From positions 1 through 64,000 of IMG/VR virus record IMGVR_UViG_3300005439_000018: DNA of 64,000 bases; one strand, given 5' to 3'. This document shows positions 2,816 through 63,273 of the stretch, one piece after another (the first letter of the stretch is position 1; every line of letters begins with the position of its first letter). The notes under the pieces were generated by a model. The model was not told where the DNA came from. It ran no database searches and saw only the letters and a program-made list of their open reading frames with translations. The DNA comes from a virus. Taxonomy: Duplodnaviria > Caudoviricetes. A program made the translations under genes and the position numbers.

Positions 2816-3097
2816 ATGTCCCGCATACACTTCGAAGACCCTCCGGAGCACGACCCGGGCAGGCGCTACGACAACCAGCAGAACCAGGACCGGGAGCAGA
2901 TCCTGCGCGCCCTGCGGGCCACGGCTCCCGGCCGCTGGGCCATCGTGTCCTACCACCGGTCCAGGGCCCGGTCCGCCCAGGTGGCCCGCGAGCTGCGGGG
3001 GCGCCACCCCGACTTCGAGTTCCGGTCGGGCCGGTCACCGCAGTGGGGGGAGGTGGTGTATGGCCGCCACATGGCGGCGAACGTTAAACTTGAGTGA
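2816..3097 (+). CDS. Hypothetical protein
   Basis: 93-aa ORF with coding-like GC3. Confidence 0.6.
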   Translation: MSRIHFEDPPEHDPGRRYDNQQNQDREQILRALRATAPGRWAIVSYHRSRARSAQVARELRGRHPDFEFRSGRSPQWGEVVYGRHMAANVKLE

Positions 3098-3169
3098 GTG
3101 GCCGTCGCGCCAGGACGACCGGCCCCCGTCGCGGGAGAGTCGTTTGTCCATAAACAGGGGGGATGACCG

Positions 3170-3493
3170 ATGGCGTCGCTAGTCTTCCAACAGGCGGGCC
3201 CCTGGGGTATCGTGGCCATAGTGGTGGGTGCCGTAGTCTTCGGTTACCTGGTGCCTCGCCCGGTACTCAAGGAGACCCGCAAGGTCGCCGAGATCTGGAG
3301 AGAGGCGTATGAGCACGAACGAGCAGGCCGCGTCGCTGCCGAGGCGCAGCGCGACAGGCTTCAGTTCGAGTACGCGGAGACAGCCAACCGCGTACTCGGT
3401 GCCCTCCCTGTCGCCGCCAGCCGAAGTATCGGGCCGGGCCGAACCCCCGACAGCGGAGGAGATCCCGATGTGGCTGTGGCCGCTAAGGGCTAG
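3170..3493 (+). CDS. Holin-like membrane protein
   Basis: N-terminal TM helix (GPWGIVAIVVGAVVFGYLVP) followed by W..AY coiled segment typical of actinophage lysis-region membrane proteins. Confidence 0.6.
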   Translation: MASLVFQQAGPWGIVAIVVGAVVFGYLVPRPVLKETRKVAEIWREAYEHERAGRVAAEAQRDRLQFEYAETANRVLGALPVAASRSIGPGRTPDSGGDPDVAVAAKG

Positions 3494-3674
3494 GAAGCGT
3501 ATCCGGGCCGAGCTGCAAGAGGCCGAGGCCGCCCGTACTGCGGCCCGCCAGCAGGCCGCCCAGACAAAGGACCGCGCACCCGCCGTGCGCCAGCTCACGC
3601 GTGAGCTCCAGCAGAAGCGGGAACTGCCCCTGGAGGCCCTGTTCCAGGCTGGCGTAAGGCATCGCCGCCCCTAG
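3468..3674 (+). CDS. Small lysis-region protein
   Basis: MWLWPLRARKR... coiled coil; overlaps the holin-like gene, a usual actinophage pairing. Confidence 0.55.
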   Translation: MWLWPLRARKRIRAELQEAEAARTAARQQAAQTKDRAPAVRQLTRELQQKRELPLEALFQAGVRHRRP

Positions 3675-3707
3675 CCACCGCGACAATCCCTGTGGTACCC
3701 TGGGGGT

Positions 3708-3995
3708 ATGGACAGCCCCATGGAACCCGTCAGCAACGCCCAATTCGGGCGCGCGGTCGGCGTGCATTTCACCACGGCATCCCGATACCGCAACGGGGAT
3801 CGGGTGCCGTCCACCGGTGTGGCTCTGAAGATCGCGGAGTCGTACAACCTCGACCCCGGAGACATCCTCCGGGCCATCTCGGCCGGACGCGAGGCGTTCG
3901 GCCACTTCATGCGCATGTACGTGTTCGGCCCGGAACCCGACGTGGACCTGAACGCGGACGGCACCGAGAAACGATCCTGGAAGAAGGCAGCGTGA
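3708..3995 (+). CDS. XRE-family HTH DNA-binding protein
   Basis: NAQFGRAVGVHFTTASRYRNGDRVPS HTH pattern. Confidence 0.8.
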   Translation: MDSPMEPVSNAQFGRAVGVHFTTASRYRNGDRVPSTGVALKIAESYNLDPGDILRAISAGREAFGHFMRMYVFGPEPDVDLNADGTEKRSWKKAA

Positions 3996-4273
3996 CCAAG
4001 ACCAACGGCGGCATATCCCCGGCCGCCGCAGCCGAGATCGCCCGCGCCATGCTCACCGATGCGGTCGGGCTCCTGCGGGAGTCCGGGTTCGCCAACATCC
4101 GGTTCGACCAGTGGGAGCACCCGACGACCAAGGTCATGGTCGAGACCGGGTACACCTACGGGGAGACCCGGCTGACCGTCCACGACGGCGGCGAGGTCAG
4201 CGACCTGCGGCTCACCGGCCGGAGCAGCCGGGAGTTCAACCGGTTCCGGCGGCTGGCGCTGGCGGGCATGTAG
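3992..4273 (+). CDS. Hypothetical protein
   Basis: GTGA overlap with the upstream gene, high GC3. Confidence 0.7.
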   Translation: MTKTNGGISPAAAAEIARAMLTDAVGLLRESGFANIRFDQWEHPTTKVMVETGYTYGETRLTVHDGGEVSDLRLTGRSSREFNRFRRLALAGM

Positions 4274-4338
4274 CGCACGCGGAGGGGGGTGGTGTGGGGT
4301 TTCGCCTGCACCACCCCCCTCCGCTTGTGTCGGGATAC

Positions 4339-4408: not shown

Positions 4409-4936
4409 ATGCCCGCCCTGACCGCCCCGCACAAGACCCACACCGCCCCCGCCCTGGCCAGCGAGGCCGCCCGCGAGTTCGCCCTGAAGCTCATAGCCCA
4501 GCGCAGCACGGCCGGTATCAGCCCGCGCATGACCGGCTGGGTCGCCCTGATGGAGCACGGGTACAACATCCCGGCCCGCAACTGCTCGATGTTGATAGAC
4601 TCGCTGAAAAAGCAGCCCTACAAGCCGGGATCCGCCCCCAAGCCCCAGGTCGAGGAGGGCTTCTTCTGGCGGGAGGGCCAGTACTACCGGGCGCAGCTGA
4701 ACCGCGAGGGGACGCGGATGTACGCCAAGGTGTGGGACGGCTCCGGCTGGGGGTACGCGGCGGGCGCGCTGTCCAAGCTCACCGAGGACATGCGGCTGTC
4801 GGCCGAGGAGGCCAAGGCGTTCGGCGACCAGTTCCACCGGTGCATCTTCTGCGGCCAGGGGCTGACCGACGACCGGAGCATCACGGCCGGGTACGGCCCC
4901 ACCTGCGCCGACAGCCACGGGCTGCCCTGGGGGTAG
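4409..4936 (+). CDS. DUF6011-domain zinc-binding protein
   Basis: CIFCGQGLTDDRSITAGYGPTCA motif; GGAGG RBS. Confidence 0.8.
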   Translation: MPALTAPHKTHTAPALASEAAREFALKLIAQRSTAGISPRMTGWVALMEHGYNIPARNCSMLIDSLKKQPYKPGSAPKPQVEEGFFWREGQYYRAQLNREGTRMYAKVWDGSGWGYAAGALSKLTEDMRLSAEEAKAFGDQFHRCIFCGQGLTDDRSITAGYGPTCADSHGLPWG

Positions 4937-5099: not shown

Positions 5100-5849
5100 G
5101 TGACCGACGAGACCAGCACCACCCCCGCCCTGGACGCCGTGAAGTCGGTGGAGGCCGACATCACGCAGGTCCTGACCGATGCCGCCGTCCCGGCCCCCGA
5201 GCCGACTCCGGCGCCCACCCCGCCCGCCCGGTACGTCACCGTCTGGCCGCACACGCTGGGCGACTTCGAGAAGTTCCCCGACGCGGTGGCCACCGTCCTG
5301 CCCAACGGCACCCTGCTCATACACAAGTTCGGTGCCCCCGCCTCCCTGCCTCCCATCAAGGGCTACGCCCCCGGCTCCTGGATCACCTTCGAGCACGTGG
5401 GCGACTACTCGCCCCCGGCGCCCCCGCGCCCGGCCCTGGCCTCCCACCGGGGCGCCCCGGCCCCGGCGGCCAAGGTCGAGACCACGAATTACGCCGTCCA
5501 GGAGCGGGCCTCCGTCGACGTCGTGCGCAGCGCTTCTCCCGCCCCCACCGCCGCCCCCGGGACGCGTCTGCGGCAGCCCGACGAGCGGCCCCGGTTCTAC
5601 GACGGCCGGGACAAGGACGTCCCGCCGCCCGGCACGACCGCCCGGCCCCGCACCGCCCCGGTGCCCGAAGGGAGTGACGACGACGCCCCAAAAGCCTCTA
5701 CGGGCGGCACCACGCCGCCCATCGAGCACCTGGCCGAGCCCGCGTTCTGGGAGGACGACGAGCGGGCCGTTCGCCCGAGCTTCTGGCGCCGGGTGTGGGC
5801 CGGGCTGATCGACGGCCCGTTCCCCGACCCGTCGAAGACCGGGGAGTGA
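5100..5849 (+). CDS. Pro/Ala-rich hypothetical protein
   Basis: GTG start with GAAGGA RBS; coding-like GC3. Confidence 0.7.
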   Translation: MTDETSTTPALDAVKSVEADITQVLTDAAVPAPEPTPAPTPPARYVTVWPHTLGDFEKFPDAVATVLPNGTLLIHKFGAPASLPPIKGYAPGSWITFEHVGDYSPPAPPRPALASHRGAPAPAAKVETTNYAVQERASVDVVRSASPAPTAAPGTRLRQPDERPRFYDGRDKDVPPPGTTARPRTAPVPEGSDDDAPKASTGGTTPPIEHLAEPAFWEDDERAVRPSFWRRVWAGLIDGPFPDPSKTGE

Positions 5850-5983: not shown

Positions 5984-6706
5984 ATGCACACTGTGACCAA
6001 CACGATCGTCGAGACCCCCGGCCACCTGGCTGGCGACACCTTCAGCGAGGGGGGGAGGTGGTGCACGCCCTGCGAGTGCGGGCGGCGGTTCACGTCGGAC
6101 ACCGAGGCCAAGGCCCAGGCCCGCTGGCGCAGCCACGCCAAGCAGTCCTCCCCGCCGCAGACGGTGGGCGCCCCCGTCCCGGCCCGCGCCACGGAGTGCG
6201 GATGCGGGTGCGGCGAGCCGCTGGCGCCCAAGGCCGGGGGCCTGTTCCGTTCCGGGCATGACGCCCGGTACAAGGCGATCCTCACCCGGGCCCACGCCGC
6301 CCACGAGCAGGTCCGGCACCCCTGGACCGGCGAGCAGGCCGACCCGATGGCCGTGGCGGACTGGCTGGACGAGCGGCGGGGCGGCGGCACCTTCTGGCGT
6401 GACCGCGTCGCGGCCGGTCACAAGCCCCAGCCGGAGCGCAGGGTCCCGGCCCCGCGCGCCGGGTCGCCGGACGCCGCTGCGGCCAGCATCCTGCGGGTCG
6501 ACAGCCTGATGGCCGCGATGACGGCGCGCCGTCCGGTCCCGGGCGACGTCGGCAAGGTGGCCCTGAAGTCCGGGACCTTCGGCGCCCGCGTCCAGCGCCG
6601 GAACAACGAGACCAGCCTGGTGGTCCGGCTCCTGGAGGGCCAGGCCATCAACACCGAGATAGTGATATCGGACGACAAGTTCACCAAGGCCAAGGCTCCC
6701 CGGTGA
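5984..6706 (+). CDS. Zinc-binding hypothetical protein
   Basis: CECG..H and CGCGCG...FRSGHDARYK motifs; the GHDA motif recurs in 31959..32606. Confidence 0.7.
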   Translation: MHTVTNTIVETPGHLAGDTFSEGGRWCTPCECGRRFTSDTEAKAQARWRSHAKQSSPPQTVGAPVPARATECGCGCGEPLAPKAGGLFRSGHDARYKAILTRAHAAHEQVRHPWTGEQADPMAVADWLDERRGGGTFWRDRVAAGHKPQPERRVPAPRAGSPDAAAASILRVDSLMAAMTARRPVPGDVGKVALKSGTFGARVQRRNNETSLVVRLLEGQAINTEIVISDDKFTKAKAPR

Positions 6707-7871: not shown

Positions 7872-8045
7872 ATGGCCAGGCACCCGCACTCGATCGGGGG
7901 AGGGGTGGTGTACGTGCTGTTCGCGGGGCCCGTCCTGTTCGCCTACTGGGTGTGGGTGCTGGCCTGGCGCCTGGAGCGGCGCGCCACGCGGACCGGCATG
8001 CACTACCTGCACAAGGCGTATCTCTGGCTTGAGCGCCGCAAGTAG
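7872..8045 (+). CDS. Small membrane protein
   Basis: AGGAGG RBS; hydrophobic VVYVLFAGPVLFAYWVWVLAW. Confidence 0.6.
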   Translation: MARHPHSIGGGVVYVLFAGPVLFAYWVWVLAWRLERRATRTGMHYLHKAYLWLERRK

Positions 8046-9906: not shown

Positions 9907-12402
9907 ATGAACGGATGCCGCATGCACGAGCACGTTGAGAAGCAGTGGCGGGAGCTGGCCGAGCAGGGGGTATTCGTCTTCCCCCTGGCGGCCGGGGGAA
10001 AGAACCCCGGCGATCTTGGCGTGAAGTGGCAGAAGACCTGGGTGGACAAGCAGCGCAACCCCTGGCCCCAGCTGGCCAGCGCGTACGACGAGGCCGAGGG
10101 CCTGTGGATGGCGACCGGCCGCGTGTCGATGCGGGTGGTGCTCGACATCGACAAGCCCGAGGCCGGGGACTACTGGCGCGACAAGATCGGCGCCGACCTG
10201 TTCGACCGCGCCCTCCGGGTCAGCACCGGCAAGGGGTACCACCTGCACTTCCGGATCCCGCCGGAGGACGACCGGCCGTGGGAGTCCCACTCGGACAACG
10301 ACCTCGGGTACGACTTCCGGGGCGACGGGGGAGGGGTGGTGATCCCTCCCAGCGTGCACGCCAGCGGCCGGGTGTACGAGTGGGCGGGCGGCGAGCTGCT
10401 CGACGTGCCGGAGGCCCTACGCCACCCCGCCCACACCAAGCCGTCCAACGTGAAGTCGCTGGACAGGGCGCGCGAGAAGAAGACCCCCGGGTCGACCCTG
10501 TCCGGGCTGCTGTCCGACCCGCCGGAGGAGGGCGGCCGGAACAACTGGCTCACCAAAGTCGCCGGTCACCTGGCCCGGCTGTGGCCCGCCCCGATGGCGG
10601 ACGCCTACACCGAGCTGGTCCGGTACATCGGGGCCACCCTCCCCGACCCGCTGGAGGATGCCGAGTCCCTCAAGACGGCCGAGTCCGTCTGGTCCCGCGA
10701 GAAGACCCACACCGAGGGCCTGGCCTGCCCGCCCGAGGCCGGATTCCTGTCGGCCCACAACGGCAAGATGTACACCCGGTGCAAGGGCGAGGACGGCAAC
10801 ATATACGCCAAGGAATGGGCCAACTTCGACCTGGCTGCCCGCCGCGTGGTCCAGGAGCACGACGAGCGCGTGTTCTACGTCGACATCGTGGCCGAGCACA
10901 CCACCTACGCCAACGAGCCCCTGCGGGCCGACGTGCTCGGCAACATCAACCGCCTGAACGTCTGGCTGGCGGCCCACCACATCGTGATCATCGGGCAGCC
11001 CACCGACCTGTGCAAGATGTCCTACGGGTCCCGCCTGATCCAGTATCTGCTGCACCAGAATCCGCCGATGGCCCAGATCGCAGAATTCTACGGCCACCAG
11101 GACGACGGGTCGTTCATCACTCCCGACGGGATCGTGGAGGGGGGTGGTGTAGCGCCCTTCCGCTCCGTGATCCCCGCCGCCTATCTGTCCGGGTGGGTCG
11201 GGTACCGCTACGGCACCTGCCCGCCCGAGGAGGCGCTGTCCGTGCTGCGCGAGGTGCTGACCTTCCAGGAGGAGACCACCGCATCGGTGTTCGGATCCTG
11301 GTGGGCGATGGCCCTGCTCAAGGGCAGATTCAGCAGCTCGCTGTTCCCGTTCATGCTGCTGGAAGCCGGGTCGGAGTCCGGCAAGACGACCGGATTCTTC
11401 GCCCAGATGGTCGCGCTGGCCGGGTCCAAGGACGGGGCGGGGCAGCACACCGCCGCCTCCTTCCGGGACGCGCTGGCCGCCCACCGCAACGGCATCGCCT
11501 GGCTGGACGACATGACCGAGGTGTCCACCGGCCAGGTGGTCGACATGATCCGCCAGGCCACCGGCGAGAGCACCCGGGGCAAGAAGGGCCTGGACAACAA
11601 GTTGACCGAGCGGGTCGCCCTGCGGTCCCCGATCCTGGTCTCGGGCGAGGGATCGGGCACGATGATGTCCGAGAAGGCCATGTCCGACCGTGCTGTGAAG
11701 CTGACGTTCTCCAGCCCGAAGGGCCGGATGAGCCTGCGCGACCCCGAACGCCCGCAGTGGGACGACGTGGTAGCGCTCCAGGAACGGTACGGAGGCACCA
11801 CGGGAGGGCTCACGGCGGTCTCCGGGACCCTGGTGGCCATGGTGCTGGCCCGGGCGTCCCTCCTGTCGTCCCTGGCGTCTCTCCGGCCGCCGGGTGCGGG
11901 CCGCCACGCGGACAAGATGGCCATCCTCCGCATGGGCGCTCGCGTCCTGGCGGACCTGACCGGCGACCAGTCCCACGTGGCCCGCGTCGACGCCTGGGTG
12001 GAGGCCCAGGTGGACACTGGGGCGGCCAACCTGATGGTCAACGAGATCGTGCCCTGGGTGCTGAGGCAGGGCGGGGGTGGTGTGCCCACCATGGCCAAGG
12101 GCTGGGTGCCCGCGTTCTACAGCCCGCAGTCGGGCACCGTCTGGGTCCACTCTGGCCAGCTGGCGGACCGCTGGCACGAGCGCAGCAACCTGTCCGCCCG
12201 GGAGCGCCAGCTGGGCACCCAGGCCGCGATCGACACCGAGCTGGCCGCCCTGGGTGCAGCCAGCGCCCGCAAGACCGTCGAGTTCCACGGCAAGAGCGAA
12301 GGGGGCAACGTCCAGAAGCGCTACCGCGAGATCCCCCGCGAGTGGACGGCCCACATCCTGGACCGGGCCGGTGTGGATCTCGGGACGGCCGCCGCCCTAT
12401 GA
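9907..12402 (+). CDS. Bifunctional primase-polymerase / helicase
   Basis: VFPLAAGGKNP, VLDIDK, STGKGYHLHF, DFRGDGGGVVIPPSVH prim-pol motifs; PriCT-like GGRNNWL; C-terminal ESGKTT Walker A. Confidence 0.9.
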   Translation: MNGCRMHEHVEKQWRELAEQGVFVFPLAAGGKNPGDLGVKWQKTWVDKQRNPWPQLASAYDEAEGLWMATGRVSMRVVLDIDKPEAGDYWRDKIGADLFDRALRVSTGKGYHLHFRIPPEDDRPWESHSDNDLGYDFRGDGGGVVIPPSVHASGRVYEWAGGELLDVPEALRHPAHTKPSNVKSLDRAREKKTPGSTLSGLLSDPPEEGGRNNWLTKVAGHLARLWPAPMADAYTELVRYIGATLPDPLEDAESLKTAESVWSREKTHTEGLACPPEAGFLSAHNGKMYTRCKGEDGNIYAKEWANFDLAARRVVQEHDERVFYVDIVAEHTTYANEPLRADVLGNINRLNVWLAAHHIVIIGQPTDLCKMSYGSRLIQYLLHQNPPMAQIAEFYGHQDDGSFITPDGIVEGGGVAPFRSVIPAAYLSGWVGYRYGTCPPEEALSVLREVLTFQEETTASVFGSWWAMALLKGRFSSSLFPFMLLEAGSESGKTTGFFAQMVALAGSKDGAGQHTAASFRDALAAHRNGIAWLDDMTEVSTGQVVDMIRQATGESTRGKKGLDNKLTERVALRSPILVSGEGSGTMMSEKAMSDRAVKLTFSSPKGRMSLRDPERPQWDDVVALQERYGGTTGGLTAVSGTLVAMVLARASLLSSLASLRPPGAGRHADKMAILRMGARVLADLTGDQSHVARVDAWVEAQVDTGAANLMVNEIVPWVLRQGGGGVPTMAKGWVPAFYSPQSGTVWVHSGQLADRWHERSNLSARERQLGTQAAIDTELAALGAASARKTVEFHGKSEGGNVQKRYREIPREWTAHILDRAGVDLGTAAAL

Positions 12403-15239: not shown

Positions 15240-15604
15240 CCCGCCGCACCAGGTACGAGTACGCCGACCCGGACGACTGGTCGACCCGCCGCACGGTCGA
15301 GATCGACCAGTGGGAGGGCAACTGGTCCGGCCAGGGCCCGGTCGACATGACCGGCCGCCCGATCCAGCCTGGCGACTGGGTGGCCAAGGTCTACCAGTCG
15401 GGACGCTCCGCCAACATGGAGGTCCGGCAGGTCCGCGAGGTGCGTCCCGCCCGTCCCCGCAAGGACTGGCGGGGGGAGGTGGTGCAGGACCCCACTCCCC
15501 GGGTGTACCTGTCCGACAGCAAGACCCCCGTCGACTACCCCGGCCGCATGCTGGTGGTCCCGTGGGACCCGGCCGGTGGCCGGGTCCCGGGCCTGAACCC
15601 CTGA
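15236..15604 (+). CDS. Hypothetical protein (SH3-like beta fold)
   Basis: GTGA overlap with Ro60; DMTGRPIQPGDWVA. Confidence 0.7.
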   Translation: MTRRTRYEYADPDDWSTRRTVEIDQWEGNWSGQGPVDMTGRPIQPGDWVAKVYQSGRSANMEVRQVREVRPARPRKDWRGEVVQDPTPRVYLSDSKTPVDYPGRMLVVPWDPAGGRVPGLNP

Positions 15605-37330: not shown

Positions 37331-37386
37331 CGGGGCCCTCCTATGCTTGGGGGCGGGGGTGGTGTACCCCCGCCCCTGGCGGTGTG

Positions 37387-43568: not shown

Positions 43569-43712
43569 ACGCCCGCGACTTGGGTCAGGGCCGACTGCGG
43601 CGCAGCCTGGACCCCGGCGCCCCCACACCACCCTCCCCCTATTCGCCGTTTCCGCCGGGCGTCGAATGGGGGAGGGTGGTATACGGGCCCCGCCGACGTG
43701 TACCCTGGTGGC

Positions 43713-49210: not shown

Positions 49211-49471
49211 TCACGCGCCCGGGTGTCCCTCGGGCCGCGCGGCCGGGTGCGTCGCGGCGATCCCGATCTCGTCGGCGAGCCACGTCCGCATCTCCGGGTC
49301 GGCGACGTGGTGCTTGAGCGCGTCGGCGATCCGGCACGCCTCGGCCTCGGTGTTCCCGCCCGCGCGGAGCGCGTCGATGGCGGCGGTGATCTGCTCGGTC
49401 GGGATCCCGTACCCCTCGGCGATGTTTCGCTCGATCGCCGTGGCCTGGCGGGCGGGGGTGGTGTTCGGCAT
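49211..49471 (-). CDS. Hypothetical protein
   Basis: GAGGAG RBS after a promoter cassette. Confidence 0.65.
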   Translation of the reverse strand: MPNTTPARQATAIERNIAEGYGIPTEQITAAIDALRAGGNTEAEACRIADALKHHVADPEMRTWLADEIGIAATHPAARPEGHPGA

Positions 49472-50612: not shown

Positions 50613-50750
50613 CCTGGTTCCCTTCCCGGGGCGGCCCCTCCGCCCCCTCTGAATAAAATTCTATCATAGGGGTTGCCTATTTGTCAATATCCCCGACACG
50701 AGCCCGCCCGGCCGCAGGGTGCGCGGCCGGGCGGGGGGTGGTGTAGCGGG

Positions 50751-53000: not shown

Positions 53001-53275
53001 GCGGATACAGCAAGGCCGCCCCGTCCGACGCCGACCTGCTGCACGGTGCGGGCCAGGGCGGCCAGGTCCTGCACGACAGCAGCCGCCACGCCGACATCAC
53101 CGGCGCCACCAAGAAGGGCCCGGATGCGGGCATGCGTGCTACCCTGGGTCGTCCGCGTGCGGGCAGCGACTACCCGGGGCCCACGCCCGAGGACGTCAAC
53201 ACCGCCCCCGGCCAGCGCACAACCAAGATCTTCGGCTCCGGCCGCCGCCTGCCGAACAACCCCAACAACCCCTGA
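52997..53275 (+). CDS. Low-complexity hypothetical protein (possible internal virion protein)
   Basis: ATGA overlap with the portal. Confidence 0.65.
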   Translation: MSGYSKAAPSDADLLHGAGQGGQVLHDSSRHADITGATKKGPDAGMRATLGRPRAGSDYPGPTPEDVNTAPGQRTTKIFGSGRRLPNNPNNP

Positions 53276-53296: not shown

Positions 53297-54793
53297 ATGA
53301 GCTGGGCAAAGTGGGACCTCGAACACCGAAGCAACAACGTTCGGGTGTCCAAGAGCGCCACGGGCGGCCTCAAGGTGATGTCTGGGGGCAAGCACCTGGG
53401 GAACATCGAGCACCGAAACGGCAGGCACGTATCGGTGATCAAGAAGTCCGGTGACCTGAAGTCCGCCGAGCACGCCTCGGCCCAGGATGCCCTGGATCAC
53501 ATCCGACAGGCCCACGGACTCCCCAAGGGCGGAGCCCTGGATTCTGAGAACCTGCTCGCCGGTCTGGGAAAGCCCGGCACCCCCCGGTCGTCAGCCCAGT
53601 CTCTTGCCGAGCAGATCCGGAGGGCGCTGGCCCACCCCGGTCCGTCTAAGACACCCGAGGTCAGCTCGACCCGGTCCCGCACCAGCGGGTCCACCATATC
53701 GCGGGCCGAGGGGTCCCGGTCTGTGGCTCGGCACAACCTCAAGGCAGACTTCAAGCGACCGGCGCCGGTGAAGGGTGAAAAGGACCGGGCCGACTCGGTG
53801 CGCACCACCATCCGCATGGCCGAGTACAACCGCAAGAAGCGGGCAGGGGGCGGTGTACGGTCGGCGGACAAGGTAGCTGCCAGTGTCAACAAGGCCGGTC
53901 CGGGGGAGTTCAGCTCTCCGCATGAGCCCGGGACCCTGGAGCACGCGGTGGACAAGGCCAACCACGCTTCGAGGATGGCTGAGGCCAACCCCACGCCCGA
54001 GACCCACGAAGCGGCTCGCACGGCCCACGCCGACGCGGCCTGGAAGGCCACCAAGGCCAAGAACGACCCCGCGAACACGTATCATTTGCTGATGGCTCGG
54101 CACCACGGTTACGCGGCCAAGGGCGAGCCGACCCGGGGGTCTCTGGGTGAGTCCCACTCCGACGCCCAGGGTGCCCTGTTCAACAACGACCCCCACCATC
54201 TGATGTCCCTGTTCTCGGACACCGAGGCCCGGCGCCAGGCGGACCAGCATTACGACTCCATCCGCAACGCAGCAGACAGCGGGCTGACCAAGACCCAGCT
54301 GTCTGCCGTCAAGACCTACACCGGAAACGCGTTCAGCAAGATCAACGACCACCTGCGGGGGTCCAAGACGATCACGGACCCTGCGGCCCGCAGCAAGGTC
54401 GAGAAGACCGTGTCCGACCTGGATGCAGCCATGTCCAAGCAGGAGCCGCTGGCGCACGATATGGTAACATATCGAGGTGTCAAGAACGCCGATCAGGTAT
54501 TCGGAAGTCTCGGCAGCCACGTGGGAGGAGAGTTTGCGGACCATGCGTTCACCAGCACCACCACCCACGGTGCAGTATCCAACGAGTTCAGCCACGAGGC
54601 CGTGGTCAGGGTGCTGAACCGCCAGGGGCAGGTGGTGTTGAAGCCCCACGACGCTGGAGCGTTCGGAAACGCCAGCGCCGACTTCAGAGAGCTGACCGTC
54701 CCCCGAGACACCAGGTACCACGTTGCTGCCGACCGCATGGTGACGCTGCACGACGGTACGTCTCGCAGGGTCATCGACCTGGTCCGCAAGTAG
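53297..54793 (+). CDS. VIP2-like ADP-ribosyltransferase 1 (head-associated)
   Basis: YTG....IN.HLRG, TYRG, FTSTT, FRE R-S-E motifs; N-terminus shared with the next gene. Confidence 0.85.
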   Translation: MSWAKWDLEHRSNNVRVSKSATGGLKVMSGGKHLGNIEHRNGRHVSVIKKSGDLKSAEHASAQDALDHIRQAHGLPKGGALDSENLLAGLGKPGTPRSSAQSLAEQIRRALAHPGPSKTPEVSSTRSRTSGSTISRAEGSRSVARHNLKADFKRPAPVKGEKDRADSVRTTIRMAEYNRKKRAGGGVRSADKVAASVNKAGPGEFSSPHEPGTLEHAVDKANHASRMAEANPTPETHEAARTAHADAAWKATKAKNDPANTYHLLMARHHGYAAKGEPTRGSLGESHSDAQGALFNNDPHHLMSLFSDTEARRQADQHYDSIRNAADSGLTKTQLSAVKTYTGNAFSKINDHLRGSKTITDPAARSKVEKTVSDLDAAMSKQEPLAHDMVTYRGVKNADQVFGSLGSHVGGEFADHAFTSTTTHGAVSNEFSHEAVVRVLNRQGQVVLKPHDAGAFGNASADFRELTVPRDTRYHVAADRMVTLHDGTSRRVIDLVRK

Positions 54794-54816: not shown

Positions 54817-57336
54817 GTGAGCTGGGCAAAGTGGGACGCCGAGCACCGGGGCCTCAATGTCCATATCGGAAAGAGCGCCACCGGCGGCCTCCGCGTGGTC
54901 TCGGGCGGCAAGCACCTGGGCAACATCGAGCACAGGGGCGGCAAGCACATCGCCGTCGTCAAGAAGGGGGGCGTCCTCGAACACACCGAGCACGACACCC
55001 ACGAGGACGCCCTCAACCACATCCGCCAGGCTCACGGCCTGTCCAAGGGCGGAGCGTCGATGAATGCCGAGGCCGAGGCGCTGGTCAAGCAGCACTCGGC
55101 CAAGAAGACGTCGTCGGCCGAGCAGCTCGCGGCCCAGATCAAGGCGTCGCTGGGGCACACCACCCCCGCCCCCCATGCGGTCACCGAGTCCAAGGCCAAG
55201 AAGAGCACCTCGACCGTCGTCACCGCCGACAAGAGCTCGGCGTCAGTGGTCCACGGCCTGGGCAAGCCCAAGAGCAAGGCCCTGGAGAAGGGCAAGAAGT
55301 ACCACAGCGACTCGATCAAGACCAAGATCCACATCGCCGCCTGGAAGGACAAGAAGGCGGCGGGAGGGGGTGGTGTATCCGCCCCCAAGGCCGCCGCAGT
55401 CCCCAAGGCCGACCCGAAGAAGGCGGCTGAGGAGCACGCCCAGAAGCTCCAGGACGCCGCTCACGCCGCATCGGCCAAGGCCGACAAGTCCGGTACGGTG
55501 GGCGACCACAAGGCCGCCGCCGCCGCGCACAACAAGGCGGCCGATGCCTCCCACGACGTCGGTATGTCCAGTCTGGCCGACCTGCACGACGCACAGGCCC
55601 AGGTGCACGGGCACAAGGCCCAGAAGGCCCAGCTCGGCGAGGAGCAGCAGGCCGCTTTTGACAAGGCGCTGGCGGCCACCACCAAGGCATCCAGTGAGAA
55701 GACCCCCGAGGCCCACAAGGCCGCCCAGGCTGCCCACGAGGCGGCGCTGAAGAAGATCAAGGGCGACGGTACCGACGTCCACGGCCGGTCGGTGTACCAC
55801 CTGAAGTGGGCCGGGTACCACGACGACGAGGCCCAGAAGCTCACGCCGTCGGGTATCCAGCTGCCTCCGCAGCAGGGCGTGTACGGCAACCTGTCGAACA
55901 TGGCCTACAAGGCCACGGCACAGGCCAACAAGGAGAACACGTACGAGGCCCACGAGACCGCCCACAAGGTGCACCTCCAGGCATCCAAGTCGGCGAAGCT
56001 GTCCAAGAACGACAAGATGGCGCAGATTCATGCCGACGCGGCACAGCAGCACAAGGCCGAGGCCGAAAAGTTGCACGCCGCGCCGAGCACCAGCTCGGCG
56101 GCGAAGATCGCGGCCACCGTCACCACTCCCCACTTCGCCTCTCCGCCGACCCAGAAGGACCTGGCCACCCAGGCGGGCAAGTCCAAGAAGGCGGCCGAGG
56201 CAGCGTCGGCCAAGGCCAACAAGACCAACACGGCGGCCGACCACCAGGCGGCCTACGAGGCCCACCTCCAGGCGTACAAGGACGCGAAGGCGGCCGGGTT
56301 CGACTCGTGGGCCAAGGTCCACATGAACAAGCAGGACGAGCACTACAAGGCCAAGAACAAGGTGCTGACGGCCGGGCTGCCCCCCGCCCCGGCGGCCAAG
56401 AAGACCACGGCGGCCCCCGCCAAGAAGGTGGCGGCCCCGGCCGCTGCGGCGCCCACCCCGTCCGGCGGCACAAAGTCCAAGTTGGAGACGGCGGCCGATG
56501 CCGCCGACAGGGCGTCCCGGGAGGCAGAGGCCGAACCGACCAAGGAGAACCACCTGGCGGCGGCCGAGGCCCACAAGGCGGCGCTGTCCGCGTCGTACTA
56601 CGACACCCACGCCAAGGCGGCGAACTACCACCAGATGATGCAGTCGTACCACGCGGCGGCGGCGTCGAACCCGGCCGGGCTGAAGAAGCCCGAGGTGCTG
56701 AAGGAGCACAAGGACGAGAAGGCCGACCTGTTCCCCCCGGAGACCCACGGGCTGCACGTCGGGTTCCAGGACACGGCCAGCCGCCGCAAGGGCCAGCAGG
56801 CGTACGACTCGGTCACCAAGGCGTCCGCCACCGGCCTGTCGCCGTCTGAGCGGTCGTCGGTCCACGCCTACACCGGGTCCTGGTACAAGAGCATCAACCG
56901 CTACCTGCGCAAGCAGGACAGCGGCACCGCCACCGTGAAGGGTCACGTCCAGCAGCTGGACTCCGCGTTCGACAAGCAGCCCCCTCTGAAGGACGACCTG
57001 ATCACCTACCGGGGCATCAGCGACGCTTCCGAGCTGTTCGGAGACGTCGGCAGCCACGTGGGCGGCGAGTTCCAGGACCACGGGTACGGCAGCAGCGCGT
57101 CCAATGCCGCAGTCACCCACGGGTTCAGCTCCAGCGGCGTGAGCGGCGCCCTGGTCCGTATCCTGCACCCGGCCGGGACCAAGGTCCTGAAGCCGTCGGA
57201 CGTGGGCTCGTTCGGAGACTCCGAACGCGAGCTGCTGATACCCCGGGGGACGAAGTTCCACGTGGCCGCCGACCGGCTGGTGACCGACCAGAACGGCAAG
57301 ACCCGCCGACTGATCGACCTGGTGCGTAAGGACTGA
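54817..57336 (+). CDS. VIP2-like ADP-ribosyltransferase 2 (head-associated)
   Basis: YTGSWYKSINRYLR, TYRG, YGSSA, ERELLIPRG; long Ala/Lys/His repeat region. Confidence 0.9.
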   Translation: MSWAKWDAEHRGLNVHIGKSATGGLRVVSGGKHLGNIEHRGGKHIAVVKKGGVLEHTEHDTHEDALNHIRQAHGLSKGGASMNAEAEALVKQHSAKKTSSAEQLAAQIKASLGHTTPAPHAVTESKAKKSTSTVVTADKSSASVVHGLGKPKSKALEKGKKYHSDSIKTKIHIAAWKDKKAAGGGGVSAPKAAAVPKADPKKAAEEHAQKLQDAAHAASAKADKSGTVGDHKAAAAAHNKAADASHDVGMSSLADLHDAQAQVHGHKAQKAQLGEEQQAAFDKALAATTKASSEKTPEAHKAAQAAHEAALKKIKGDGTDVHGRSVYHLKWAGYHDDEAQKLTPSGIQLPPQQGVYGNLSNMAYKATAQANKENTYEAHETAHKVHLQASKSAKLSKNDKMAQIHADAAQQHKAEAEKLHAAPSTSSAAKIAATVTTPHFASPPTQKDLATQAGKSKKAAEAASAKANKTNTAADHQAAYEAHLQAYKDAKAAGFDSWAKVHMNKQDEHYKAKNKVLTAGLPPAPAAKKTTAAPAKKVAAPAAAAPTPSGGTKSKLETAADAADRASREAEAEPTKENHLAAAEAHKAALSASYYDTHAKAANYHQMMQSYHAAAASNPAGLKKPEVLKEHKDEKADLFPPETHGLHVGFQDTASRRKGQQAYDSVTKASATGLSPSERSSVHAYTGSWYKSINRYLRKQDSGTATVKGHVQQLDSAFDKQPPLKDDLITYRGISDASELFGDVGSHVGGEFQDHGYGSSASNAAVTHGFSSSGVSGALVRILHPAGTKVLKPSDVGSFGDSERELLIPRGTKFHVAADRLVTDQNGKTRRLIDLVRKD

Positions 57337-57395: not shown

Positions 57396-57575
57396 ATGGC
57401 CAAGGACCCGCGCCAGCCGCACGGCGGCGACGACCCGGAGGACTCCGGCAGCGCCGACAAGTTCACATGGAGGCCGGGGGAGGTGGTGTGGACCCGTAAG
57501 CCCACATCGGCCCAGCAGCTCGCCGGGCGCCTGAAGGCCAACGAGGGCCCGGGCCGCCCGGTCAAGAAGCGGTGA
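57396..57575 (+). CDS. Small protein downstream of the ARTs (possible immunity factor)
   Basis: AAGGAGG RBS; DKFTWRPGEV; own promoter TTGCCC-N19-TACAAT at 57340. Confidence 0.65.
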   Translation: MAKDPRQPHGGDDPEDSGSADKFTWRPGEVVWTRKPTSAQQLAGRLKANEGPGRPVKKR

Positions 57576-57581
57576 CCGGCG

Positions 57582-58712
57582 GTGGCGGCCGACAGCTCCG
57601 GTAACACACCGGCCGAGCAGCAGGCCGTCACCTCCACCAAGCTGGAGAACGTGGCGGCGGTCGCTGCCATGCTTGCCCTGGAGCGCGAGGCCGTCAGTGC
57701 GGCCTCCGCCCCCCTGCGTACCGCGATCGCCAACATATTCCGCCTGATGGCCGGGCGGTACGTCATCCTCGCCGGTGCCCTGGACCGCCCGGCCACGCCC
57801 GAGGTCACCCGCCAGCTGTCCGAGACTCTGGCCCTGGAGCTGGAGACCCTGCGGGCGATCGACCCCACCCCCGCACTGGAGAAGGCCGCCACCGACGCCA
57901 GCCGCCTGGGGCTGGAATATGCAAACAGGCGCATGACAGACGCCTTCCCGGACACCACCCCCCACCCGCCCGAGGACACGGTCCGGTCCCCCGAGGTCGA
58001 GCAGCTGGTCCGGGAGGCCCCCGGCCGCATCTCCAAGGCGGTGGACGACGCCCAGGAGTTCGCCGAGGCGGTCCCGGCAGCCGACTGGGCGGGGGTGGTG
58101 CAGCAGGTGGGCAAGGCGGCCCAGGCCGCGACCAGCCTGGAGAAGACCACCGCGCAGGTGGTGGCCACGGCCCACAACGACAGCATCCAGTCGGTGGCCG
58201 CCGCCAAGGGGGCCCGCCTGCTGTGGGTGGCCGAGCCCGATGCGTGCGTGGTCTGCCTGGCCCTGTCCGGGCATCTGGCCGACCCGAACACCGGCGAGTG
58301 GTTCGACGAGGAGGCCACCTTCGGCAAGCCGGGGTCGGCCATGCGGGTGTGGCCCCCCGGCCAGCCGCTGAAGGGCCCGCCGCGCCACCCCCACTGCCGG
58401 TGCGTCCCCGAGCTGTGGTTCGGGGCGTCCCTGCCGGTGGGCCACCCCGGCGAGACCTCGCTGTACAACGCCCCGGACCTCGCAGCACAGGTCGACCTGC
58501 CCGCCGCCCTGCGCCGCGAGGCCAAGCGGTCGGTCCTGTACGGCTGGTCCCTGCCGTCCGAGTCCGGCACTGTCCGGCTGAAGGCGGCCGAGCGGCTGCT
58601 GGCCAAGGGTGCCGGGCTGCCCAAGTCGGTCGAGGAGCGGGCCCGGAAGGCGGTCAAGGCCGGGAAGTTCGACAACCGGATACACCCGTCCAAGAGGACT
58701 GCGAAGCGGTAG
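57582..58712 (+). CDS. MuF-like minor head / capsid maturation protein
   Basis: WVAEPDACVVCLALSG...PPRHPHCRC. Confidence 0.85.
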   Translation: MAADSSGNTPAEQQAVTSTKLENVAAVAAMLALEREAVSAASAPLRTAIANIFRLMAGRYVILAGALDRPATPEVTRQLSETLALELETLRAIDPTPALEKAATDASRLGLEYANRRMTDAFPDTTPHPPEDTVRSPEVEQLVREAPGRISKAVDDAQEFAEAVPAADWAGVVQQVGKAAQAATSLEKTTAQVVATAHNDSIQSVAAAKGARLLWVAEPDACVVCLALSGHLADPNTGEWFDEEATFGKPGSAMRVWPPGQPLKGPPRHPHCRCVPELWFGASLPVGHPGETSLYNAPDLAAQVDLPAALRREAKRSVLYGWSLPSESGTVRLKAAERLLAKGAGLPKSVEERARKAVKAGKFDNRIHPSKRTAKR

Positions 58713-58781: not shown

Positions 58782-59621
58782 GTGAATCACCCCCGCCTGA
58801 CGCCCGTTCCGGGCACCCCCATCGGCTACCTCGCCTCGGGACAGCCGGTGTATCCCTTTGCCGGGGCGTCCCCGGACGACGACACCCTGGAGGTCGGCCC
58901 CGACGACGAGCCGGACGACGTCGAAGACGAGCTCGAGGAGGACGACCCCTCGGACGATGAGAGGGAGTACCGGCCTCCGTCCCGCGCCGAGTGGGTCAAG
59001 GTGCAGGCGTCCCTGGTCAAGGCCAACGGGTCGGCCAAGCAGCGCCGGGAAGCCATGGCCGCCCTCCAGAAGCAGGTCGACGAGCTGCTGGCCGAGAAGG
59101 CCGAGCGCGAGACCGACGAGGAGCGCCGGGCCCTGGCGAAGGGGGCAGTGAAGCCCGGCGACAAGAAGAAGGCGGCGGGGGGTGGTGCAGCCCCGGTCCT
59201 GCCGGACGGCGTGTTTACCAAGACCCAGGTCCGCCAGCAGCTGGCCGCCGCCACCAAGGAGGCCGAGGAGCGCGTCGAGGGCAAGTACCGGGACATCGCC
59301 GTGAAGTCGGCGGCCCGGGCGGCCCTGTCCGAGGCCGGTGTCCAGGGCGGTGGTGTCTCCCGGCTGGTCAAGCTGCTGGACCTGCACGCGGTCGAGCTGG
59401 ACGAGGACGGCGACGTGTCCGCCGGGCTCGACGAGCAGATCGAGGAGCTGAAGCAGGAGTTCCCCCAGCTGTTCAAGGAGCCCGAGCCGGTGCGCCCGGT
59501 GCGGCGGAGGGCCGCCGCGCCCCGGGGTGCGAACGGCGCCGGTCGCGAGGCGCTGCCGGAGGACACCGTCCGCCTGTCGACCGCTGAGAAGATCGCGCGC
59601 CAGGCGTTGGGCAGCAGGTAG
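58782..59621 (+). CDS. Scaffolding protein
   Basis: Acidic N-terminus, coiled coil, IE.LK..FPQLF; precedes the capsid gene. Confidence 0.85.
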   Translation: MNHPRLTPVPGTPIGYLASGQPVYPFAGASPDDDTLEVGPDDEPDDVEDELEEDDPSDDEREYRPPSRAEWVKVQASLVKANGSAKQRREAMAALQKQVDELLAEKAERETDEERRALAKGAVKPGDKKKAAGGGAAPVLPDGVFTKTQVRQQLAAATKEAEERVEGKYRDIAVKSAARAALSEAGVQGGGVSRLVKLLDLHAVELDEDGDVSAGLDEQIEELKQEFPQLFKEPEPVRPVRRRAAAPRGANGAGREALPEDTVRLSTAEKIARQALGSR

Positions 59622-60784: not shown

Positions 60785-60864
60785 TCGGGGCCGTCCTAGA
60801 CGGCGGGCGGCGCCTTCAGGCGGGTCGCCGCCCGCTCCCCGGTCCTCCAGAAACGGAGACCCTC

Positions 60865-61317
60865 ATGGCAGATTTCACCGGCGGGCAGTTCCCCTCTCTC
60901 GACGGCAATCCCGAAGCCGAAGTGGCCCAGCGCACCGAGCTGCCGACCGAGGGCAGCTGGTTCCGCAAGCAGTTCGTCGTGCACAACCGGTCCCACACCC
61001 GGGACCTGTCGGAGGACCACGAGGTCCATCTGGCCAACCTCGGGTCGGTCCTCCAGGATGCGCTCCAGCGCGGGCTGCACCCCAAGGACGCCCCGGAGCT
61101 GGAATCCGAGGACGACCACGACTGGGAGAAGGACACCACCGTCCTGACCTACCGGGTCCCCGTGGTCCCGGCGGTCGCCGACGACCACCCGGAGACCACC
61201 GTCACGCCCTCGGTGCTGGCCTGGGCGCTGGCCCAGCGGGCCGGTCACGACCAGGACGAGCCGGTCATCGCCCCGGTCCCCGAGCCCAAGGCTTCCGCTG
61301 AGGAGCCGACGGAGTGA
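60865..61317 (+). CDS. Hypothetical head-region protein
   Basis: ALQRGLHP...LTYRVPV; follows the capsid terminator. Confidence 0.7.
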   Translation: MADFTGGQFPSLDGNPEAEVAQRTELPTEGSWFRKQFVVHNRSHTRDLSEDHEVHLANLGSVLQDALQRGLHPKDAPELESEDDHDWEKDTTVLTYRVPVVPAVADDHPETTVTPSVLAWALAQRAGHDQDEPVIAPVPEPKASAEEPTE

Positions 61318-62153
61318 CCCTCTCGACCAACCAGGGTGCGACGGCGGTCGTCCAGTCCTCCTGGTCGGTCGGCGGCGTCCCCACCGACGTCAGCAACCTG
61401 ACCGTGGCCGTGTCGGCCGTGTCCGACGGGTCCCCGGTCGTCTCTCCCACCGCCTCAGGCATCTACCACGCCAGCACCGGCGAGTACACCTTCAGCTGGG
61501 CCGTGCCCACCACCCAGGCGGTCGGCGACTATCTGGCCACCTGGTCCGGGACGCTGGCGGGGGTAGCGTCCACCCAGCAGGTGGTGGTCACGGTCCAGGA
61601 TACGAACTTCGGGTTCCCCAGCTTCCTGACCTGGTGCGACATCTCCCTGACCGAGGGCCCCATGGACAACCGGGGCACGATCCACGCGGTCGACCCGGTG
61701 GCCTGGGTCAAGTCCGTCACCGGCCAGACCCTGACGATGGACAGCATCAACCAGGGGCAGCAGGTCCTGAACCTGTACAGCAACTATACCCCGGAGTCCA
61801 GCGGGTTCAACATGCAGCCGTTCGACCTGCTGTGGCTGCGGTACGGGCTGGCCTATCAGTCCACCTGGATGACCCAGCAGCCGGGCCTGCTGTACCGTGC
61901 CGGGGTTACCTCGATCTCCCAGGACGGGCTGTCCACCAACTTCGCCGACGCGCGGGCCATCATGCTGGCCCCGTTGGCGGTCCGCGCCCTCAAGCAGCTG
62001 TCCTGGCAGAAGTCCCGCTCCCTGCGGGTGCGCGTCCCGTTCATCGACGACCAGACGCCGATGTCCTCCGACCCGGACGCCGAGGCCAACGACCTGTACG
62101 AGCGCTGGGTGGACATGTACAACTTCGGGTATCGCGGATCGTCGGTCCCGTAA
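61314..62153 (+). CDS. Head-to-tail adaptor
   Basis: Ig-like N-terminus; Q..W...SISQDGLS...LAPLA.RALK.LSW. Confidence 0.75.
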   Translation: MTLSTNQGATAVVQSSWSVGGVPTDVSNLTVAVSAVSDGSPVVSPTASGIYHASTGEYTFSWAVPTTQAVGDYLATWSGTLAGVASTQQVVVTVQDTNFGFPSFLTWCDISLTEGPMDNRGTIHAVDPVAWVKSVTGQTLTMDSINQGQQVLNLYSNYTPESSGFNMQPFDLLWLRYGLAYQSTWMTQQPGLLYRAGVTSISQDGLSTNFADARAIMLAPLAVRALKQLSWQKSRSLRVRVPFIDDQTPMSSDPDAEANDLYERWVDMYNFGYRGSSVP

Positions 62154-62560
62154 TGGGCCGCTCCGCCGACGCCATCGCCCTGCGCGAGCAGGTCTACCAG
62201 CAGATGCTCCGCAAGTTCCCGCCGGACTCGATCGCCTGGGTCCGGCAGGTCCGCTGGTCCGGTCCCGCCCAGGTCCCGCTGTCCGATATCGACAGCACCG
62301 GCCGGGACAGCTGGCGTGCCAGCCACGAGCCCGCCGGGGTCGAGGAGCACCGCCGCAAGGAGGCGTCCGGCACCGCCCGCCCGATCGTCCTGGTACAGCC
62401 CCCCGGCGGCCGGAAGACGATCGTGGACGGCCATCACCGGTTCCTGGGGGCCGAGCAGAACGGGCAGTCCGCCATCCTGGCCTGGACGGCCTCGGTGCCT
62501 GCCGCGACCGGCCCGTGGACCGAGACCCACTCGTCCCAGAAGGGCGGCCCGAGCAACTGA
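62153..62560 (+). CDS. ParB/Srx-like domain protein
   Basis: PIVLV...TIVDGHHRF.A. Confidence 0.75.
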   Translation: MGRSADAIALREQVYQQMLRKFPPDSIAWVRQVRWSGPAQVPLSDIDSTGRDSWRASHEPAGVEEHRRKEASGTARPIVLVQPPGGRKTIVDGHHRFLGAEQNGQSAILAWTASVPAATGPWTETHSSQKGGPSN

Positions 62561-62889
62561 TGCAGGCAATCCCCACCACCACGGTCAGCATCCTGCGCGG
62601 TACCACCGAGACCGACGCGGGCGACATCGTGGACAGCCTCACCCCCAGGTACACCGGCATCCCGGCCTCGATCATGGAGCGGACCCGGAACGGCATCGAC
62701 TCGGTCAGCTTCGAACCCCGGGTGTACCGCTACACCACCTGCCGCCTCCCGTCGGGCACCGACGTCCTGGACACCGACCTGATCCTGGACGAGCGAACCG
62801 GCAAGCAGTACTCCATCTCGGCCGTCTCCCGGCTGGGGTCGTTCGTGCACGTCCCGGACCTGCGGCTGGACCTCCAGTACGTCAACTGA
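62560..62889 (+). CDS. Head-to-tail stopper
   Basis: TVSILRGT...GIPASI...D.I.DERTG..Y.I..V. Confidence 0.75.
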   Translation: MQAIPTTTVSILRGTTETDAGDIVDSLTPRYTGIPASIMERTRNGIDSVSFEPRVYRYTTCRLPSGTDVLDTDLILDERTGKQYSISAVSRLGSFVHVPDLRLDLQYVN

Positions 62890-62948
62890 CACCACCCCCC
62901 TCTCCGGTGTACAATTAACCTGAACTTCACCGACCGAGGGAGACCCCG

Positions 62949-63173
62949 ATGGCCAGCATCCCGAACCTGGGTACCCGCGACCCCCTGAACGCCGACCGCA
63001 AGGCGGGCAACGCCAGCAACGGCGTGACCCCCGGCTCGTCGGCCAAACTCCTGAAGGGCGGCGGCTCGATCGGCGGCGCCCAGGAGGCGGGCCACCAGCC
63101 GTCGAAGAAGGCCCACCCCCAGGGCCCGTTCGTCGACCGCGACGGCAACCGCTTCCGGATGCCGAGCTGCTGA
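62949..63173 (+). CDS. Small hypothetical protein flanked by inverted repeats
   Basis: GAGGGAG RBS; TACAAT -10 upstream. Confidence 0.6.
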   Translation: MASIPNLGTRDPLNADRKAGNASNGVTPGSSAKLLKGGGSIGGAQEAGHQPSKKAHPQGPFVDRDGNRFRMPSC

Positions 63174-63273
63174 GCGACGCCCGCACCACAACTGAACCGC
63201 ACTGCTGCGCCGCCCCCGTTCGACCGGAGTAGATCCGGGAGGGGGGTGGTGTAGCCACCCGACGTAGAGGAGG

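Follow-up and report, generated by a model that had tools for sequence, protein, structure and literature searches.

Polar words in phage genomes are already a known kind of element. Here we describe one, GGnnGGGGGTGGTGYR(S), which is repeated along one strand of the 77,296-bp contig IMGVR_UViG_3300005439_000018 (genome G000), whose sequence is that of an uncultured tailed phage of the Streptomyces-phage kind; bases 1–64000 of this contig form the window analyzed. Among the described systems, the stoperators of the Cluster A mycobacteriophages (L5 gp71 repressor) are asymmetric sequences of 13–14 bp, present in 20–36 copies genome-wide. They point with transcription, lie mainly between genes and serve prophage silencing, whereas the copies described here lie mostly in genes and their orientation ignores transcription. 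The FtsK-orienting polar sequences (KOPS) share with our word a strand polarity along the replicon. The uptake signal sequences (USS) of the Pasteurellaceae and the DNA uptake sequences (DUS) of the Neisseriaceae resemble it in being dispersed, evenly spaced and frame-tolerated, with inverted pairs reused as terminators, but they are not strand-polar and belong to cellular genomes.

Similar in layout are the Chi-saturated phages, E. coli lambdoid LLS and P. aeruginosa MD8, which carry a top-strand over-represented word at a density of about one per 1.3–1.9 kb, independent of local genes and read as a one-way motor-nuclease signal (PMC12315714). Unlike ours, their word is the 8-nt Chi of the host, abundant in the host chromosome and clustered near the right end, and these phages lack recombination genes. 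The nick motifs of tf/LUZ24, phiKMV and T5 are phage-specific consensus sequences of 9–19 nt that run through oppositely transcribed regions and are conserved in relatives, as is the case here. Phage tf has 14 copies of a 9-nt consensus (TACTRTGMC, tf/LUZ24); each of them is nicked, and all lie on the top strand even though they span two convergent transcription units, while phiKMV-like phages have a 19-nt nick consensus with five free positions (PMC3517423). Such phages have 4–14 sites and none on the other strand, in contrast to the 33–45 sites plus 6–16 reverse copies reported here. The AEP PrimPols (pRN1 ORF904, phage NrS-1) read a template 5'-GTG-3' or 5'-GTGG-3' via a helix-bundle domain and start just upstream. 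Their sites, GTG for pRN1 ORF904 and GTGG/GTGA and TTTGGTTA for NrS-1, have the GTG/GTGG core in common with our word and are read single-stranded by the same domain family as that encoded in this phage (PMC8718748, PMC2965215). These sites are 3–8 nt long, and no polar, evenly spaced array of them is known.

A position weight matrix (PWM) refined from the copies defines 16–17 informative columns in the word, with about 14 fixed positions, and no conserved column in its flanks. Counted at a PWM score of at least 14, the window holds 40 copies on the plus strand and 11 on the minus strand, and the whole genome 45 and 16, respectively (binomial P = 3e-4). The initial annotation of this DNA had noted about 40 strand-polarized sites. 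A plus copy lies within 8 nt of 34 of its 35 listed positions, the 35th (43668) is a degenerate copy ending in GGTGGTA, and six plus copies in the window can be added to that list (921, 31066, 31243, 44348, 53842 and 54624). Genes were called with a codon-likelihood caller made for this analysis. When synonymous codons were shuffled within genes, with proteins and codon usage kept, 12.7 ± 2.2 plus and 7.0 ± 1.7 minus copies were obtained; shuffling the codon order gave 8.5 and 4.6. The plus copies lie about 15 standard deviations above the codon-aware null, and the minus copies are somewhat enriched too. Both the over-representation and the strand bias proposed at the outset thus hold (45 versus 12.7 for the plus strand; 45:16 in the genome). 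The heptamer GGTGGTG alone is enriched (98 versus 23.6 in dinucleotide shuffles) and barely polar (65:59 in the genome); since the composite word is both enriched and polar, the polarity lies in the G-run plus GGTGGTG.

Plus copies occur about once per 1.7 kb, and their gaps are more even than chance would give (coefficient of variation, CV, 0.63 versus 0.97, P = 0.0002), with three gaps shorter than 500 bp where 11 were expected. Coding sequence holds 33 of the 45 plus copies. The annotation had placed the copies in different reading frames: those in plus genes occupy mainly two frames (19 and 13 copies), with one copy in the third, and copies antisense to a gene invariably fall in the frame reading ACC-ACC-CCC. 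That the word forces non-preferred codons is also borne out, as it makes up 0.9% of plus-strand coding DNA, yet accounts for 13% of all GGT and 13% of all GTA codons. The copies in the window are as follows (start..end, strand, context and PWM score; each is a word copy unless described otherwise, and G002 is a collinear relative).

921..936, +, antisense in leftward glycosyltransferase gene 721–1737; 22.0; retained in G002
3045..3060, +, in + gene 2816–3097; 20.1
4281..4296, +, intergenic, 5' hairpin arm with 4307; 23.1
6050..6065, +, in + gene 5984–6706; 21.1
7897..7912, +, start of + gene 7872–8045; 24.9
10328..10343, +, PrimPol gene; 19.1; retained in G002 with a 4-nt slip
11136..11151, +, PrimPol gene; 25.3; retained in G002
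12069..12084, +, PrimPol gene; 20.4; retained in G002
14009..14024, +, Ro60/TROVE gene; 22.3
14641..14656, +, Ro60/TROVE gene; 19.8
15471..15486, +, in + gene 15236–15604; 26.3
17222..17237, +, DinG-like helicase gene; 20.8
18355..18370, +, start of + gene 18344–19171; 19.8
19775..19790, +, end of RNase H-like gene, next start 13 nt on; 19.2
22609..22624, +, in + gene 21909–23099; 19.3
27153..27168, +, in + gene 27047–27313; 19.7
27658..27673, +, in + gene 27513–27716; 22.9
29688..29703, +, PurZ-like gene; 18.8; retained in G002
30925..30940, +, in + gene 30717–31640; 22.6
31066..31081, +, in + gene 30717–31640; 19.2
31243..31258, +, variant with GGCGGTG core, in + gene 30717–31640; 18.6
35266..35281, +, degenerate copy between convergent genes, 3' hairpin arm with complement at about 35240; 18.0
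36385..36400, +, intergenic in leftward block, G-run pairs with C-run just downstream; 23.6
37351..37366, +, intergenic in leftward block, G-run pairs with C-run just downstream; 25.9
38428..38443, +, antisense in leftward gene 38261–38782; 22.7
40724..40739, +, end of + gene, just 5' of ATG 40741; 25.6
42215..42230, +, in + gene 42159–42374; 25.2; same site with near-identical flanks in G001
44348..44363, +, weak copy with sister core GGTGGCG; 14.1
45545..45560, +, start of large terminase gene; 20.0
47065..47080, +, large terminase gene; 19.8
49450..49465, +, antisense in leftward gene 49211–49471; 25.3
50730..50745, +, intergenic in leftward block; 22.6
52648..52663, +, portal gene; 16.9
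53842..53857, +, variant with GGCGGTG core, in + gene 53297–54793; 18.7
54624..54639, +, in + gene 53297–54793; 18.9
55362..55377, +, in + gene 54817–57336; 25.3
57475..57490, +, in + gene 57396–57575; 21.8
58087..58102, +, in + gene 57582–58712; 20.0
59174..59189, +, in + gene 58782–59621; 24.2; retained in G002
63238..63253, +, intergenic, 21 nt 5' of start 63274; 24.8; retained in G002
4307..4322, -, reverse copy, intergenic, 3' hairpin arm with 4281, probable terminator; 20.8
4439..4454, -, reverse copy in + gene, codon-friendly ACC-ACC-CCC frame; 17.3
5115..5130, -, reverse copy in + gene, codon-friendly frame; 22.7
16407..16422, -, reverse copy in + gene; 16.3; not retained in G002
38758..38773, -, sole reverse copy within a leftward gene, weak; 16.4
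43624..43639, -, weak reverse copy, intergenic, pairs with degenerate + copy 43668; 13.3
46748..46763, -, reverse copy in terminase gene; 16.1; not retained in G002
53198..53213, -, reverse copy in + gene; 17.9; not retained
55156..55171, -, reverse copy in + gene, codon-friendly frame; 23.7
57951..57966, -, reverse copy in + gene, codon-friendly frame; 18.8
62731..62746, -, reverse copy in + gene; 20.3; not retained
62888..62903, -, reverse copy, gene end; 15.3; not retained

The plus strand carries 86% of the coding DNA, and four blocks are transcribed leftward (1–2734, 35296–38782, 47265–51223 and 75780–77177). Within these blocks the word keeps its plus orientation, as had been claimed, with seven plus copies against one weak minus copy in this genome and a ratio of 19:2 pooled over four genomes. 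Its density in leftward genes, where it is antisense, is 0.42 per kb, compared with 0.55 per kb in rightward genes. Therefore, a reading at the mRNA level, or one like that of the stoperators, whose orientation follows transcription, is nearly excluded.

The same polarity recurs in relatives. G002 (IMG/VR) is complete and collinear (77,480 bp; about 73% nucleotide identity over about 40 kb), and the exact 9-mer GGGGTGGTG occurs in it 50 times forward and 17 times in reverse, against 2 and 2 for a reversed-word control. The forward-to-reverse ratio of this 9-mer is 29:7 in G011 (74.6 kb, 97% complete) and 11:3, 9:4 and 7:0 in the fragments G001, G015 and L267. In all three full genomes (G000, G002 and G011), plus copies are evenly spaced, at one per 1.7–2.3 kb, with a CV of 0.63, 0.68 and 0.53, respectively (all P ≤ 0.006). 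Compared strictly column by column, the word is no more identical between genomes than its flanks are, an effect of slippage of the G-run by a few bases; a copy was therefore counted as retained if another lay within 8 nt. A plus copy has a same-strand partner in 24 of 45 pairwise aligned cases between these ~73%-identical genomes, whereas for minus copies the figure is 1 of 20 (Fisher P = 2e-4). Retention in G002 extends to the antisense plus copies at 921 and 75992. Selection therefore maintains the plus copies, with some turnover. Taken with the 19:2 ratio in leftward blocks, the retention of plus copies only and the recurrent polarity uphold the proposal of a DNA-level signal tied to genome polarity, distinct from stoperators. 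The word is a selected, real direction signal in the DNA.

The annotation had also described the reverse copies as mostly hairpin arms. This is correct for the intergenic copies at 4307, 43624 and 75616 and the degenerate one at 35240, but not for the 12 within genes. The pairs concerned are 4281/4307, 35240/35266, 43624/43668 and 75616/75643, and these intergenic inverted pairs are probable terminators; a few reverse copies may have been recruited as the second arm of such hairpins. Reverse copies otherwise are mostly transient, chance or codon-driven. They crowd the structural module (genome 53–76 kb) in G000 and G002, not in G011, in a Thr-Thr-Pro frame and without being retained, probably an effect of amino-acid composition. 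A general hairpin or ssi-like structure at the word was rejected, since plus copies do not differ from other G-runs in folding energy or in the pairing of the G-run.

Among cultured phages, the Hiyaa group of Streptomyces phages comes nearest, at a PolA identity of only 36–38%; a megablast search of cultured phages with the window returned no match. In G013/G014, G012 and the cultured Streptomyces phage Hiyaa, whose PrimPol is 47–57% identical to the one encoded here, our word is replaced by GGG(G)TGGCG(G). The Hiyaa PrimPol is the product of gene 47. In G013, G012 and Hiyaa this sister word is a clean T-to-C switch, GGGGTGGCG, ending in GGTGGCG; GGGTGGCGG is the form on the Hiyaa plus strand. 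In these three it stands at z = 8–13 above the synonymous-codon null on the plus strand and is weak or absent on the minus strand, and its extended form counts 6:0 in G013. The two spellings are mutually exclusive.

G012, Hiyaa and the present phage have in common PrimPol, an exonuclease, Sak4, PurZ, PolA and a small helix-turn-helix (HTH) protein. The HTH_3 protein and several proteins without assigned function are conserved in every word-bearing genome spanning the region, including Hiyaa. The DinG-like helicase and the products of the genes at 4367, 5984 and 9327 are likewise among the proteins common to the word-bearing genomes. In contrast, no tblastn hit was obtained for the terminase and portal of G012 and Hiyaa (G013 is a fragment without the packaging region). 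Since the sister word accompanies a shared replication module and an unrelated terminase and portal, the reader should belong to the replication/recombination module rather than to the packaging motor, which weakens the packaging or ejection role offered by the initial annotation. PrimPol is the sole primase recognized among about 40 proteins scanned; a DinG-like helicase, an RNase H-like protein, a Sak4-like annealing protein and an exonuclease were recognized as well. The principal genes are the following.

3708–3995, HTH_3 protein, 95 aa
9907–12402, +, PrimPol primase-polymerase with PriCT-1 helix-bundle domain (Pfam PF09250 1e-17, PF08708 4e-7), candidate reader
13554–15239, Ro60/TROVE plus vWA protein
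23776–26022, PolA
28799–29899, PurA/PurZ-like adenylosuccinate synthetase; annotated in Hiyaa, where the homologue is 49% identical, as 2-aminooxy adenylosuccinate synthetase
45537–47237, +, large terminase (TerL; PHROG 38, 1e-58), by which, in conventional phage maps, + becomes the 'top' strand
51384–53000, portal

The 11-mer cores of both spellings show no excess over a reversed control in Streptomyces, Kitasatospora, Nocardia, Actinoplanes and a Micrococcales metagenome-assembled genome, the natural host not having been identified; one core occurs per 70–500 kb in those five genomes, about 20 to 100 times more sparsely than in the phages. Across all GTDB genomes the 16-mer gave singletons only, as chance hits would. 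The word is thus phage-specific, and because the tested actinobacterial genomes show no excess of it, the phage itself probably encodes its reader, which would be linked to replication or recombination. Of the other roles first suggested, that of a host Chi loses ground: the long word has no excess in the five actinobacterial genomes, which weakens mimicry of a host Chi, and E. coli Chi, tried as a candidate, is not polar here (6:12). A KOPS-like role fares no better, because GGGNAGGG, its consensus, shows no polarity here (19:18) and FtsK-like genes were not found; tblastn with the FtsK-like protein of Hiyaa gave nothing in G000 or G002, nor was a FtsK/SpoIIIE homologue seen. A cue for replication or recombination, the latter also among the roles first suggested, is what we favor. 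Most likely, a factor of the replication/recombination module of the phage reads the word, and the machineries of transcription, translation and packaging do not.

Within that module, we tentatively favor PrimPol, for which the word would provide preferred priming sites on the lagging-strand template; we place this above the other explanations while holding it to be short of probable. The plus strand would be exposed single-stranded, either as lagging-strand template or as the strand displaced in rolling-circle replication. PrimPol would bind the GTGGTG(TA) part via its helix-bundle (PriCT-1) domain and then begin a primer copying the adjoining G-run, and the even array, at one copy per 1.7–2.3 kb, would set the starts of Okazaki fragments on the plus strand. 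The RNase H-like and PolA enzymes of the phage could process the primers. In agreement with this proposal, the encoded PrimPol has the helix-bundle template-recognition domain of the AEP enzymes, the invariant GGTGGTG holds both GTGG and GTG (a short resemblance that could be due to chance), the G-run lies on the side where the primer would be copied, the spacing is even and Okazaki-like, and the word co-varies with the replication module.

Several observations weigh against PrimPol as the reader. Primase recognition sites known to us measure 3–8 nt, and we know of no precedent for a dispersed 16-nt priming word. The NrS-1 site TTTGGTTA, the one long phage PrimPol site known, occurs once in the NrS-1 genome and forms no array. 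At four-fold sites, GC skew has a plus-strand component of -0.10 in this genome and of +0.06 in G002, opposite values that are uninformative on forks, and a search of G000, G002 and G011 for an origin or an iteron cluster was negative. The link to the module points no less to the exonuclease, Sak4, the DinG-like helicase, the conserved HTH protein and several proteins without assigned function, and the orientation suits Chi-like and other polar signals equally well. The selection on the word, its polarity, its indifference to transcription, its phage specificity and its link to the replication module are established; that PrimPol reads it is an inference.

The next explanation in our ranking, possible if rather unlikely, is an array of binding sites for another DNA-binding protein of the early/replication module, which would coat, organize or polarly block the genome. 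The 95-aa HTH protein or the module proteins without assigned function could fill this role, the strand bias arising from assembly in one direction or from roadblocks that act one way. The length and information content of the word, with about 14 fixed positions, are what one expects of a protein that binds duplex DNA sequence-specifically; the word is phage-specific and its spelling follows the clade, the HTH_3 protein and others are conserved wherever a word-bearing genome spans the region, and the asymmetric stoperator arrays of 13–14 bp in Cluster A mycobacteriophages are a precedent. However, simple operators would need neither even spacing nor strict one-strandedness, and the location of 33 of the 45 copies within coding sequence and their indifference to transcription do not favor this explanation. 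A prophage-silencing role is unlikely, because the proteins scanned (not every open reading frame was scanned) include no integrase, and there is no leftward open reading frame longer than 197 aa. Ranked below the binding array, and in our view unlikely, is a Chi-like brake, in which the word on the 3'-ended plus strand would attenuate or switch a helicase-nuclease entering from an exposed right-hand end, such as that of a concatemer or a rolling-circle tail. Host AdnAB/RecBCD is one possible enzyme and an exonuclease-helicase pair of the phage another, and the brake would shield the genome while feeding recombination-dependent replication. The word resembles phage Chi arrays in being over-represented, one-stranded, transcription-independent and genome-wide. 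It also lies on the top strand relative to the terminase (TerL on plus, word 45:16), and the top strand, with the terminase read left to right, is the active orientation in LLS (20:3) and MD8 (32:0) (PMC12315714). In addition, the GGTGGTG core matches six of the eight positions of GCTGGTGG. Yet every known Chi has 5–8 nt, compared with about 14 informative positions over 16–17 nt here, and the copies are evenly spread rather than massed near one end. The E. coli Chi ratio and the lack of excess of either spelling in the five actinobacterial genomes, cited above, count against it as well, as does the difference in the word between sister phage clades. Moreover, the phage has its own Sak4 plus exonuclease, a module that Chi-rich phages typically lack (PMC12315714).

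It is also conceivable, though improbable, that a phage nickase cuts the plus strand at a fixed bond within the word, as in T5 and the phiKMV-like and tf/LUZ24-like phages. The signature is the same, being phage-specific, one-stranded, transcription-independent and kept in G002, G011, G001, G015 and L267, and the genome has a weak match to a LAGLIDADG-like endonuclease. Against nicking, the other strand of tf has zero copies, whereas here there are 16 reverse copies versus 7 in the null, a difference tempered by the fact that reverse copies are not retained between relatives. Exact inverted pairs 26–45 nt apart occur here and in several relatives, and nicking of both members of such a pair would break the duplex; 33–45 nicks per genome would also be far above any known case. 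Finally, the G-rich, Shine-Dalgarno-like word might act in RNA by pausing ribosomes, aiding reinitiation or binding an RNA-binding protein. It does hold GGAGG-like stretches, about 8 of 45 copies lie within 25 nt of a start codon versus about 1.7 expected, and 86% of the coding DNA is on the plus strand. However, the antisense density in leftward genes equals that in rightward genes, the sense orientation is nearly absent from leftward blocks, where 19:2 runs the wrong way, and G002 retains two antisense copies (921 and 75992). The leftward blocks bring this last explanation close to refutation.

Other features of the genome deserve mention. The first 80 bases of the contig recur exactly at its end (window 1–80 = genome 77217–77296), and the contig is therefore a circularly closed metagenomic assembly with an arbitrary start; its coordinate 1 falls within a leftward gene. 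The G+C content is 69.5%. The PurZ-like gene adjoins PolA (23776–26022) and a dUTPase/dCTP-deaminase-like fusion (30717–31640), and with these neighbors it suggests a pathway to a 2-aminoadenine (Z-base) genome. The weak LAGLIDADG-like open reading frame (28262–28774) lies just upstream of it. In G012 (IMGVR_UViG_3300037760_000038), at about 64.9–66.2 kb in the PrimPol orientation, two one-strand clusters of direct 9–10-nt repeats, each with five to six copies within about 300 bp, look iteron-like and are a candidate replication origin.

A tRNA-Asp (13355–13432) and about 950 nt without a called gene lie 5' of the Ro60/TROVE gene. This gene-free stretch could contain Y-RNA-like genes; Rfam at gathering score reported only the tRNA over 12402–15239. 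tRNA-Met (39000–39076) and tRNA-Asn (39746–39821) lie in the gene-poor stretch following the second leftward block, and a tRNA-Pro called by ARAGORN within PolA (24808–24897) lacks Rfam support. Only tRNAs were found by Rfam, none of them at word copies. Two large proteins encoded 3' of the portal (53297–57336) each end in an ADP-ribosyltransferase exoenzyme domain (PF03496) and look like MuF-type head proteins with toxin-like cargo domains. The leftward gene pair at 721–2734 (minus strand) encodes a glycosyltransferase and a nucleotide-sugar epimerase, the target of which could be the cell envelope or DNA modification.

One-strand, genome-wide words are rare handles on directed-DNA processes such as replication, end resection, nicking and translocation. 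The present word is unusually long and strongly selected, and it is written through proteins at a cost in rare codons. The word, its length, its two clade spellings and their link to a PurZ/PrimPol module are undescribed in the literature we searched, where queries for the word or for Hiyaa returned nothing relevant. As a tentative proposal, these phages may use a priming code, in which a long primase word placed evenly along one strand sets the lagging-strand starts and co-evolves with the PrimPol of PurZ actinophages; GGTGGTG here and GGTGGCG in the Hiyaa-like phages would be its clade variants. Because the second spelling occurs in a cultured phage, Hiyaa, which grows on S. lividans, the reader can be sought at the bench. 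If PrimPol does read the word, we would have the first example of a genome organized about fixed priming sites; if the reader is a nickase or a nuclease brake, those systems would be extended to actinophages with genes of the 2-aminoadenine pathway. Either way, the word offers a simple marker in the sequence by which phages of this group can be recognized in metagenomes.

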